A DNA stretch of 58,021 nt, counting the filler, from Streblomastix strix (Eukaryota): NCBI GenBank assembly GCA_008636045.1. It is 3 parts of 3 records of this genome, joined end to end, with 100 filler letters (N's around TTAATTAATTAA, not from the genome) between each part and the next. Parts side by side here need not be neighbours in the genome. Positions count along the whole stretch, not along the records: positions 38,757 to 58,021 come from SNRW01000528.1; 2 more parts are not named here. One strand, given 5' to 3'. Each line of letters begins with the position of its first letter. Within the stretch, counting starts at the first letter, position 1. Below the pieces are notes generated by a model. That model ran no database searches. It saw only the letters and a program-made list of their open reading frames with translations, and had not been told where the DNA came from. Positions 47,788-52,258 of this stretch are shown piece after piece. Position numbers and translations under genes: made by a program.

Positions 47788-50700
47788 ATGGCCAGACCTT
47801 TCAATGCATTTCTTGTTCTTGGTGTTCGTGATTCTAAACCTCCTTTACCAGAGATTTTGTTTAGGTTTTATAATTTAACAAATAATTCTTTCTCAATTTA
47901 TTTCTATAAATGATTTTATTTAATACTTCAGCTTCATTGCACCTGGATATGAATTACCTTAATGCATCATCGATTATTGTTTTCCAGAAGCACTTATTAA
48001 ATCAAGAAAAACAGAAGGGTTTGTTGAATGAGTTTATTTAGTACAACATCAAAGTTATGTACTGATTCTTGATTATTATTTTTTAGATAATTAACAGTTT
48101 TTTATCCAAACAAATTAAAGTATAATAAATAAAGAGGTTACGTGAGTAAATTCATGCCTCCCAATACATTAGAACCAAGTTTTCCTATTTGTTTCTGCTT
48201 CTTAACTGAAATGTATTAAATTGAAATAATATATTTTAATTTCTTTTATATTTCTTATTTTTATACTTGCTTTTATCCATATTTCATTTAGTGATTGGTT
48301 ATCACTGTTTAATCAGTGCTCAACAACTCTTCAATAAATATTTATTTCAAAAAAATAGTTTTTATATTCAGAAAATTGCTCACCAACTGATCTACCAAAG
48401 AATTGTGGGAAATTTTTGTTACCATTTATAACTGCTATGGTTTGTATAATTAAAATGATAATAGTATTAATTCAAATTAATTATATGAAAGAAACTATAC
48501 TAAAATATTTGTAAACTTTTTATGTAGCATTATTTGAGTTATTTATTTACTTATTATTGATTCAACATTTTATTTTAAGTATAAAACACCGATTCCAGTA
48601 CCTGGAAAACTTTATGAAATATTCTCCCTTCCAACCAAAGGAATAAATTCGGGTAAAACATTAGATCAATTCTTAAAAATATTTAAATATGAACATTAAT
48701 ATTCTTAAAATAATCTATTATATTCTTTGGTATATTTATATTTTTAGATAAAATAGTTGAAGAAATGACATTATCTCTTTTATAGATTCAAAGACCAACA
48801 ATTAACAATTTTGATAGAGTTTAGAATGAAGTTGATGCAGGTATGAATATATATAAATTTAAAAAATGATTATACAATTTTAATAGTAATTTAGTTATAT
48901 TTATAATTTATATATTGATATATTTAATTATATTATAAAATTTATATTTATTTTTGCATTTAATCTAGTATTTCTCAATTTTTATTTTATTCCAGAAATT
49001 AAATCACTTCTTCATTGGATAAATATTGAAGATATTGTCTCTGTTATTGCTTGGTTATATAGCGAAAAGTTTTCAAATTAATTATATTCAAAAATAATTA
49101 AGATAATATAGGATTAATTTTATATTATTTTACATATTATAAATTATAATCTTCTTAATATTCATGGTTAGTTCCATCCTTATATCTTCATCATCTTCAC
49201 CAATATCATCGTCTCTTTCTATTTCAATTACATAACTACTAACTCCATATAACTGGGAATTTCTTATTTATCCAGTTGCTCCTGAATTTATATTGAGGAA
49301 GTACTTTGATGAATGGAAATTGAGAATGAATGAGAATATTAATTTTGATAATAATTAGAAAATGATTGAAAAATAAAAAGATAAAGAAATATTAATTGGA
49401 GAAAGTTTGAATGAATTAGATTCTATCTATTTAGCCCATTCCCCAATGGATTACTTATATAGTAAATATTATTCATCACAATAAGTTAACGAGAATATTA
49501 ATAATAAGAACATAATTCAACCAATCATTGCTGGAATAATTGAAGAAAATGTTGGAATTATACCAAAGGTTTGATATTTAAATAAATATTATTAGTTTAG
49601 ATGCAAAATTTTATTATAAATTTATTTTATTTTAATTTATTGAACAAATTTGTTTTCTTTGTTTTTTATTACATTATTTTCATACAGAATTTCCCTCATG
49701 TTTTTGTTAATACTTCTAATTTACCAGTTACCATCAGTGTTATTTCAAGTAAAAAAGAATCAATCAACAAATTCATTGAAAGAATATAATAAGAAAAAGA
49801 TTCTTCTCCAACTTTTGATTTTGCTCGATTTTTAATATTTCGCCAATATTTATCTGAAAAACTTGTTTTTATGGGAAAAAAATAAATTATTTCAGAGTAA
49901 TAGAAACAAATTCAAACATAATAACATCAACAATAATCAAAGAGTTAAATAAATATCAATTCTCTCTCTGATTTATAATAATTATTTTTAGAATAACCAA
50001 ACTTGATTATTCAATATTTACATCATATTAATTTATCTCTTATTTCAAATTATGGAGAATTTTGCATTAAAAAAGAAAAAGATCAAATGAAATCAACAGA
50101 TGATGAATAAATAAATAAATAATATTAATTATAAAAAGAAATGGAAATGGAACTTTATGGAGGTCTTAATATTCATTCATTCATTAATTCAAAATCAAAC
50201 AAAGAAATTTCTTCGGATGGTAACACAATATCCACGGCTCAATTTGCAACTGCTTTAATAACAAGAGGAAAATAAACGTTAAATAATATAACTGAAATTA
50301 ATTAAAAATAATATAATAACTAAACATTTTAATTCTCTGATAATTTTTGTGCATCTATGTTCAGATCATTCATATATTCCAGAGCATAATTGAGATCAAC
50401 TGGATTACAAGGATTTTAGATTCAAATTGATGAATTTGATACTTAATTGTAAAAATTAAATTAATAGTAAGAAGAAGAAGGAAATAATATGAACATCAAA
50501 GCAAATGCTGAATATAAAGGGAATATGAAAATCAATCTGGGTGAAAATTAAAATTAAATTTATTCTTAACCATAATAATAAAGTCAATATCATCCTTAAC
50601 CAAAAATATAAATAAATATTAAACCAACTCAAAAATCACCTTTTTCCTTATCTTCAACTTCTATAAGTGTTGATATTACTTCAATTAAACCAACAATAAA

Positions 50701-52258
50701 TTTTGCTCAACATTAGATGTAAATAAATGAAGCAGATAAAATCATAGAAGACAACAAAGATGAAGAAATTATAGGGAAATCAATTAATAATAATTTGAAT
50801 TCAATCAACACTATTTTATCATCAACTTAATAAATTTAAGAAGATTAGTTCACAATAATTGAATAAGATTAGTCTAGTAAATAATAAACAATTTTGAAAT
50901 TTTCAGATTAAAAAGATATTGAGAATAGAATATCAGCAATAATTATATGCACAAATGAAAGTTCAATGATGAAATCAATTAAATCAAAATTTTTACATAA
51001 AATTGGAGGATGCGAAATAATAAATCATGTGAAAAGAACGTTAGAAACTCTGGGTACAAAATAGTGTATCGTTGTAATTTCTTAAGACATTGAAATGGAG
51101 ATTAGAAGCTGTCTGAATGAAAATGAAAAAATTGTAGTATAAAATGATCAAATGAAAATTATTAATGCAATTTAAGTTGGACTTTACGATATAGAAAATA
51201 TGGATGAAATTATACTTATTACATACGGTGATATTCCACTTATTAGCGAAGAAACCTACAAAAGAATGATTTGTGCCATAAATAATAACAAAAATTCATT
51301 GATATTAATAGGATTTTAAACAAATAATGTAAATAATGGGCACGATCGATTGATTATTGATTCAGAAAATATTATTAAGTTTATCATTAAATATAAAAAC
51401 GCCAGTGACAAATAGAAAGAAAATACATTATGCAGTACTGGAATTTTTGCTTTGAGAAGCTCAAGATTACTTTAAAATCTTCTTAAATTAGTTTAGCATA
51501 ATAATCAAGATAATTAATTTTGTTTTTCTGATATTATTGAATTGGCTATAAATTAGAATCATGTTTGTGCTTGTATCACAGTTGTTGAGAATGAAGTTAT
51601 GAAAGTTAATTCCATTGCAGATCTTTCAATAGTTGAGCATTCATATCAAACCGCAAAAAGAGAAGAATTTTTGAGCAAAGGCGTGAATCTTATTGATCCA
51701 GACACTGTATATTTTTCATACGGCACTGAAATCGAGAATGATGTTACAATTGAACAAAATGTCATATTTATGAACAATGTTAAATTGCATAGTGGAGCAG
51801 AAATTAAAGCATTCACCTACTTGGAAGATTGTGAGGTGTTTGGTGGTGCAATAATCGGACCGTTTGCAAGAATAAGACCTGAAAGTGTCATTGGCTAAAA
51901 TTCTAGAGTAGGTAATTTCTGTGAAATTAAAAAATCTTATCTGGGAAATGGTACAAAGGTTAGTCATCTTTCATATATTGGTGATTCTGATATTGGAGAA
52001 TAAACAAATATAGGTGCTGGGACTATAACATGTAACTATGATGGATATTCAAAATTCAATACAAAAATAGGAAGCAATTCTTTTGTTGGTTCTAATACAA
52101 TATTTATCGCTCCTGTATCAATTGGAGATAATACATTGACTGCAGCTGGAAGTGTTATTACCAAAGATGTGGATTCTAACTCATTAGCGATAACACGTTC
52201 AGAATAGAAAAATATACAAAACGGAATGATCAAATATAGAAGCAAAAGAAACAAATGA
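47788..52258 (+). CDS. DENN-domain protein fused to C-terminal GlmU (multi-exon)
   Basis: uDENN-like [14 protein letters not shown]; cDENN-like [26 protein letters not shown] intron 49569-49687; final exon 49688-52258 open through to the GlmU stop. 5' exon boundaries are approximate. Confidence 0.65.
50930..52258 (+). CDS. glmU: GlmU domain: degenerate uridyltransferase plus conserved glucosamine-1-phosphate acetyltransferase
   Basis: [66 protein letters not shown]; intronless with in-frame TAA/TAG. Confidence 0.92.

Follow-up and report, generated by a model that had tools for sequence, protein, structure and literature searches.

A DENN-type gene joined in frame to a Rickettsiales-like glmU with a predicted inactive uridyltransferase domain in Streblomastix strix

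The DNA analysed here (the window) is a stretch of 58,021 nucleotides of the termite-gut oxymonad Streblomastix strix (GenBank assembly GCA_008636045.1), made of three parts of three records joined end to end, in which positions 38,757 to 58,021 come from SNRW01000528.1. It is AT-rich eukaryotic DNA and was translated with table 6 (TAA and TAG as glutamine, TGA as the only stop), a code in which TAA and TAG encode glutamine having been described for the genus (PMC1501061). Between 47788 and 52258, a nine-exon model starting at ATG 47788 encodes 1214 amino acids with no internal stop, in the order DENN, a linker rich in Q, I, N and S, and GlmU (Table 1). The gene contains no N letters, and its eight introns are all GT-AG, with lengths of 67-155 nt and G+C fractions of 0.10-0.24. 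None of the introns (47865-49687) has a length divisible by three and four of the eight carry an in-frame TGA, as would be expected if intron retention were policed in a one-stop code. A first-pass annotation had read the last exon (49688-52258) as one TGA-free frame running from DENN-like sequence through the linker into GlmU, and the frame is indeed 856 codons long followed by a stop; in-frame TGA is absent from all four segments of exon 9, where the two other frames hold 2 and 8, 5 and 10, 10 and 14, and 5 and 10. The fusion of DENN and GlmU in one frame is real at the DNA level, and the single fused frame is likely to be expressed as such.

The 5' half has two paralogues among named S. strix proteins, KAA6392148.1 (P0145) and KAA6363930.1 (P0144), which are cluster mates and 95% identical to each other. 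P0145 aligns to residues 1-358 of the fusion with 255/365 identities (70%), with gaps only inside exon 8 and none at any of the seven junctions of exons 1-8, and introns 1-7 are confirmed by this alignment, since P0145 stems from a separate gene annotation. P0144 aligns to exons 5-8 at 63% identity and was the only match (67%) of exon 8 among 1.84 billion representative proteins. In Pfam, the nine single-exon pieces gave no DENN family match, but the central DENN domain (PF02141) is found in P0145 (36.1 bits) and P0144 (26.7 bits) above the cut-off of 23.4, and through the 70%-identical P0145 the DENN identity proposed earlier for the 5' exons is supported. Of 11 shorter pieces, the one from the start of exon 8 matched PF02141 and nothing else, below the cut-off (E 0.2, profile positions 111-148 of 186). 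There was no match for PF03456 (uDENN) in the single-exon pieces or P0145, none for PF03455 (dDENN) in the single-exon pieces or the 11 shorter ones, and no Pfam match of any kind for reading frames continued across introns; PDB sequence searches with the DENN pieces and paralogues as queries returned nothing real. In Atlas, P0145 has a feature similarity of 0.95 and a template modelling (TM) score of 0.61 to DENND2 clusters over residues 1-320, and its model aligns from residue 1 with uDENN-bearing clusters (TM 0.61). The nearest Atlas clusters are DENND2D/2C and parabasalid DENNs. The single-sequence model of exon 9 part 1 is helical, but its predicted local distance difference test (pLDDT) value of 39 makes it, and a fold search started from it, uninformative; judged by its position and motifs, this segment is likely the end of the DENN core plus the dDENN region. 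The classical DENN module of Rab guanine nucleotide exchange factors (GEFs) is tripartite, PF03456/PF02141/PF03455, and low-complexity inserts like the one seen here occur in other DENNs (PMC3521125). The fusion shares with it the PF02141 match of the paralogue and the superposition over residues 1-320; in contrast to classical DENNs, it ends in a metabolic enzyme of bacterial type, its dDENN part appears in no profile match, and its Rab GEF role is putative.

The paralogues are alike over exons 1-8 (P0145) and 5-8 (P0144), but are annotated as ending at a TGA in intron 8. This intron resembles the others of the gene (T 0.55, GC 0.13), and its retention would place that TGA at its second codon. 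Such endings would suit a locus with two products, a 359-residue DENN protein (from unspliced intron 8 or an early-cut transcript) and a GlmU protein from an internal start, for instance ATG 50717, which is preceded by TTAG as ATG 47788 is; we consider this quite improbable. The PF02141 match of the paralogue stops at profile position 147 of 186, so the DENN domain seems unfinished without exon 9. Further evidence comes from two termite gut metagenome runs of separate studies, X1 (possibly the source of the window) and X2. A diverged X1 contig (record 6, a DENN copy at about 4.6 times the depth) matches at 49410-49585 and 49673-49924, with other, intron-like sequence where intron 8 lies. Both flanks of the intron are kept with frame-consistent changes: among the 40 best-supported differences, the DENN frame makes 16 of 19 changed codons synonymous or conservative, compared with 9/18 and 6/19 (with 3 stops) for the other frames. 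It also has a 3-nt insertion fitting P0144 and P0145. The match of this contig begins at 49410 and goes no further than 50439, and in X1 the depth stays level at 9.2 throughout 51648-52178, without a second copy. This hints that the paralogues may lack GlmU, a hole of this kind proving nothing.

The linker is spanned by one X1 contig (record 5), which covers 49089-52700 with 2 other letters, and X2 pieces lie at 50264-50493, 50732-50882 and 50861-51011 with 6, 0 and 3 other letters, respectively, the last crossing the linker-GlmU joint; none of the X2 pieces listed lies over 50494-50731. There is thus no sign of a misassembly in the linker, a concern raised with the first-pass annotation, and these contigs speak for continuity of the DNA, not of the transcript. 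The linker has no in-frame TGA (5 and 10 in the other frames) and a G+C content by codon position of 0.27/0.25/0.14, the same pattern as in the DENN part. Shuffled sequence contains a stop-free stretch as long as its 543 nt in 4.7% of cases, and 92 of 3568 overlapping non-coding windows are open to the same extent, a chance of 0.03-0.05 that leaves some room for two products. The codon score of 50387-50716, from a model trained on two neighbour genes, is 0.047 against a non-coding mean of -0.16 and is reached by 2.6% of 1566 overlapping windows. Each of these tests is modest and together they favour a coding linker. With intron 8 spliced, no in-frame stop precedes 52256, and the linker holds no intron-like segment to part the two halves, none of its 139 GT..AG candidates being as T-rich as the true introns. 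Ten proteins from internal Met starts had no exact match in the protein collection.

GlmU is full length, spanning 50930-52255. Its best NCBIfam model is PRK14353 (452-455 bits, below the cut-off of 505), and TIGR01173 gives 362-365.2 bits, also below its curated cut-off (366.85); Pfam NTP_transf_3 and Hexapep, corresponding to a nucleotidyltransferase fold and a left-handed beta-helix, both pass theirs. The structural model has a pLDDT of 94 and matches solved GlmU in Foldseek with TM scores up to 0.86, and, being built with an alignment of active homologues, says nothing on catalysis. Thirteen in-frame TAA/TAG codons are present, two of them aligned with a Gln shared by 119 of 120 homologues, while the 155 bacterial GlmU loci fetched have no in-frame stop in 157 tblastn pieces. 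The G+C content at third codon positions is 0.19-0.21 compared with 0.37 in the best genome locus for GlmU, that of a metagenome-assembled genome titled Rickettsiales bacterium (L001), and codon use correlates at 0.87 with the host half and 0.55 with L001. The earlier view of an intronless GlmU that uses TAA/TAG as Gln and is adapted to the host, not a contaminant, therefore holds. A chimera of a protist contig and bacterial DNA, made in assembly or amplification, is very improbable: the best-covering run is a gut metagenome that may itself have yielded the window, and the window is a gapped scaffold, but the GlmU can be read only with TAA/TAG as Gln at 13 codons, the closest of the fetched loci matches its DNA at about 70%, an independent study has pieces within 0-6 letters over both linker ends, and both neighbouring genes use table 6.

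The proteins closest to the GlmU are 47-54% identical to it. In a 55-row tree, drawn from a subset of the matches and loci picked to span them, it falls in a 9-row clade that includes L001 (support 99/98), inside a 35-row clade (100/100); the top protein match is labelled Bacilli by its source, yet groups with the same rows as L001. The N-half tree recovers the same nine rows (99), and in the C-half tree the GlmU lies with them in a 14-row group (86). The Rickettsiales-labelled kin and the best profile agree with the alphaproteobacterial origin suggested in the first reading. The donor would lie in or beside the gut clade, and lateral transfer from a bacterium to the nuclear genome is indicated by the bacterial phylogeny, the host code and the linkage to intron-bearing sequence. 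That the gene is instead a relic of the lost mitochondrion is the least probable of the explanations. The best profile is alphaproteobacterial, mitochondria were lost in oxymonads (PMC10703272), and the approximately unbiased (AU) test allows a position just outside the gut clade, but GlmU shows 54% identity and no indel over 445 amino acids against its gut-bacterial relatives and has no intron, and the term GlmU is absent from the searched part of the Preaxostyla supplements. A contig of X2 (record 14) corresponding to 51941-52165 is 81% identical to the acetyltransferase region, where the fetched bacterial loci reach 72-76%, and belongs either to a nearer donor lineage or to a sister oxymonad copy. 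PF02141 had no match in three genomes resembling the donor or in 14 controls; what the DENN half matched in the DNA of these genomes was rejected as short AT-rich pieces.

The two domains of the GlmU differ in conservation. Of the columns conserved across 90% or more of 120 homologues, 28 of 46 are kept in the N-terminal domain and 60 of 63 in the C-terminal domain (18 and 3 lost; Fisher p 1e-5), and homologues lose on average 1.1 and 1.7 columns (10 and 7 in the worst cases), a lenient control since the same rows defined the columns. Residues replaced in the N-terminal domain (E. coli numbering) include R18, G81, T82, Y139, G140, E154, N169, E195, Y197 and T199, presumably of the nucleotide and sugar (UDP-N-acetylglucosamine, UDP-GlcNAc) pocket, whereas K25, Q76, D105 and N227 are kept. 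The pyrophosphorylase fingerprint of GlmU, L-x2-G-x-G-T-x-M-x4-P-K (PMC10087520), retains only M and K, both glycines and the threonine (G14, G16, T17) being lost and the proline being Ser also in the closest bacterial rows. The acetyltransferase catalytic residues, Glu348, His362, Ser404 and Ala379 in Streptococcus pneumoniae numbering (PMC11947611), have their equivalents at E339, H353, S395 and A370 of the GlmU protein. The end branch of the N half is 0.91 long compared with 0.18-0.41 for the nearest bacterial rows with a branch of their own, and that of the C half 0.27 compared with 0.13-0.29. The length and the core of the N-terminal domain have stayed, with no indel against four of six close relatives, a single one against the other two, none against three relatives of full length, and 60 of 64 hydrophobic columns kept. 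What had been annotated as a full-length GlmU is so in length and fold, but its N-terminal active site is degenerate. We consider it highly likely that the acetyltransferase is active and the uridyltransferase dead, as predicted from these residues; the protein is probably not bifunctional, and its N-terminal domain shows the pattern of a pseudo-enzyme domain joined to an enzyme under selection. The fusion shares both domains, the connecting helix, the length and the acetyltransferase residues with bacterial bifunctional GlmU (TIGR01173, PRK14353, PDB 1hv9, 9dqf), and differs in being nuclear and table-6 coded, in lying behind about 770 host residues and in its reduced fingerprint.

The pattern of the two domains is mirrored in the host pathway, as listed in the orthogroup table rows of the PMC10703272 supplement. 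There, the GNA1 orthogroup (q2001799) has members from Monocercomonoides, Blattamonas and Paratrimastix but none from S. strix, UAP1 is listed for S. strix, and the mutase orthogroup, which holds the phosphoglucosamine mutase of Giardia (PMC8700996), has two copies in S. strix and one in each other Preaxostyla (PMC10703272). An eroded uridyltransferase site beside an intact acetyltransferase points to a metabolic reason for keeping the GlmU, standing in for GNA1 beside UAP1, and not to a capture that serves trafficking, as had been suggested at first. It is here proposed, as the slightly favoured explanation, that a host DENN gene and a Rickettsiales-like glmU make one protein of 1214 amino acids that acetylates glucosamine-1-phosphate in place of GNA1, with its uridyltransferase dead; this confidence rests mainly on the steps of an expressed fused frame and of one active and one dead domain, and the replacement of GNA1, held with about the same modest preference, is the weakest part of the statement. 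The glmU, likely from a Rickettsiales-like gut bacterium, would have integrated in frame behind the 3' end of a single DENN copy, thereby obtaining a promoter and a start; as host UAP1 made the uridyltransferase redundant, its site would have decayed, and the domain may have kept its fold because translation has to pass through it and because it lies against the beta-helix trimer. In the proposed route, the mutase would turn glucosamine-6-phosphate into glucosamine-1-phosphate, the fusion acetyltransferase would turn this into N-acetylglucosamine-1-phosphate, and UAP1 would complete UDP-GlcNAc. Compared with the eukaryotic GNA1/AGM1/UAP1 route, the end product is the same and UAP1 and the mutase are listed, but acetylation would follow the bacterial order, taking place on the 1-phosphate, and its enzyme would be a beta-helix protein and not a GNAT.

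Several points weigh against this proposal. In the gene model, intron 8 is the weaker joint and a DENN-only product is conceivable, 50387-50716 exceeds non-coding DNA in codon score by no more than a modest margin, and the leniency of the homologue control bears on the column counts. In the tree, a GlmU placed as sister to the gut clade of 26 rows, instead of within it, is not rejected by the AU test (31 rows, p 0.13). Little weight can be put on the empty GNA1 cell, as the assembly of S. strix is in small fragments (N50 5.18 kb; PMC10703272), and in the same table Trimastix is also without a GNA1 orthogroup member and the GFAT orthogroup is empty for both S. strix and Blattamonas, in S. strix either from missed genes or from salvage of glucosamine. 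Lastly, the fusion is known from one lineage only.

The two domains of GlmU are separately active and acetyl transfer needs the trimer (PMC10087520). As the acetyltransferase of GlmU functions only in trimeric form, the DENN module would be trimeric as well. That DENN and enzyme are coupled in function, and not merely joined, is doubtful, and still more so is the fuller version in which a Rickettsiales-derived acetyltransferase replaced GNA1, giving a hybrid UDP-GlcNAc pathway in bacterial order, and as a trimeric Rab-GEF fusion couples the supply of amino sugar to a traffic compartment, for example one that digests bacterial symbionts. It is also unlikely that the GlmU was kept for regulation, trimerising the DENN GEF with ligands tuning Rab activation (acetyl-CoA, glucosamine-1-phosphate, or a sugar nucleotide bound in the former active site), or with DENN placing acetylation at a Rab compartment. 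The dead domain keeping its exact length and core would fit such a role, as would a DENN half still 70% identical to its paralogue and the room for DENN left by GlmU N-terminal domains that project off the trimer axis (PMC10087520). However, it is the nucleotide and sugar pocket that has lost its residues, which speaks against a sensing role at that site, the full set of acetyltransferase catalytic residues suggests that catalysis was selected, and tight DENN-GlmU coupling is made unlikely by a linker of about 180 low-complexity residues.

The architecture, built of two known families, was not found elsewhere in the searches made here, and the first-pass annotation knew of no such fusion. With the first 400 residues of exon 9 as query, no fusion relative was found among 5907 candidate proteins of 470-1498 amino acids; among 3891 candidates of 787-2245 amino acids two matched, both partial GlmU without a listed DENN family, which is weak evidence. 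Metagenome scans gave 0 of 532 with the DENN part and 75 loci (best 55%) with the GlmU, and none of 10 viral contigs carried the fusion. No DENN-GlmU fusion and no GlmU in Streblomastix were found in a literature search with the S. strix single-cell genome paper and the PMC6759080 supplement outside its scope, and the parts covered of PMC6759080 and bioRxiv 10.1101/2025.07.29.667580 have nothing on this gene.

Elsewhere in the window, the gene is flanked by two genes on the opposite strand, and two repeats lie nearby (Table 1). The region 5431-37334 contains several table-6 open reading frames (ORFs) of a mobile element that we take to be Polinton-like. The gaps at 19284-19383 and 38657-38756, each of 44 N, 12 bases and 44 N, lie far from the DENN-GlmU gene.

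Table 1. Features of the DENN-GlmU gene and of the rest of the window.
Feature	Position	Strand	Description and basis
Exon 1	47788-47864	+	ATG, start of uDENN/longin region; exon model, colinear with P0145
Exon 2	47932-48018	+	Exon model, P0145 alignment
Exon 3	48087-48212	+	Exon model, P0145 alignment; PF02141 match of the paralogue starts here (residue 87)
Exon 4	48292-48439	+	Exon model, P0145 alignment
Exon 5	48580-48652	+	Exon model, paralogue alignments
Exon 6	48748-48840	+	Exon model, paralogue alignments
Exon 7	48996-49068	+	Exon model, paralogue alignments
Exon 8	49172-49568	+	Central DENN core with low-complexity insert; PF02141 E 0.2, 67% to P0144
Intron 8	49569-49687	+	GT..AG, phase 0; T 0.55, GC 0.13
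Exon 9 part 1	49688-50386	+	Likely DENN core end and helical dDENN region; position-based
Exon 9 part 2	50387-50929	+	Q/I/N/S-rich linker, about 180 codons; codon periodicity, codon score
Exon 9 part 3	50930-51652	+	GlmU uridyltransferase domain, predicted catalytically dead, fold kept
Exon 9 part 4	51653-52258	+	GlmU beta-helix glucosamine-1-phosphate acetyltransferase domain, predicted active; TGA stop
Neighbour gene	43887-46199	-	Coiled-coil and Armadillo-repeat gene, table 6
Neighbour gene	53546-55636	-	Table-6 gene, no Pfam match
Inverted repeat, 203 nt	47277-47479 / 56137-56339		90% alike; first copy just upstream of DENN start
Direct repeat, 227 nt	47003-47225 / 42736-42962		75%
1511-aa frame	29154-33686	-	DNA polymerase and endonuclease VII matches
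Related copies of 1511-aa frame	6364-8904, 13441-17601		86% to each other, broken
Packaging-ATPase-like ORF	19932-20948		
HNH ORF	25589-26533		
DUF5906 ORF	35850-37334		
661-aa frame	26199-28181		No family label

If the proposed role is correct, S. strix would represent a eukaryote in which one half of a bacterial cell-wall enzyme serves in UDP-GlcNAc synthesis, and the gene would be a clear case of a transferred bifunctional gene trimmed to the activity that the host lacked. The incoming gene would have been domesticated through in-frame fusion to a spare host gene copy, and the case points to gene flow from Rickettsiales-like gut bacteria to an amitochondriate protist. Should DENN and the enzyme also be functionally coupled, the fusion would represent a new link between metabolism and Rab signalling.

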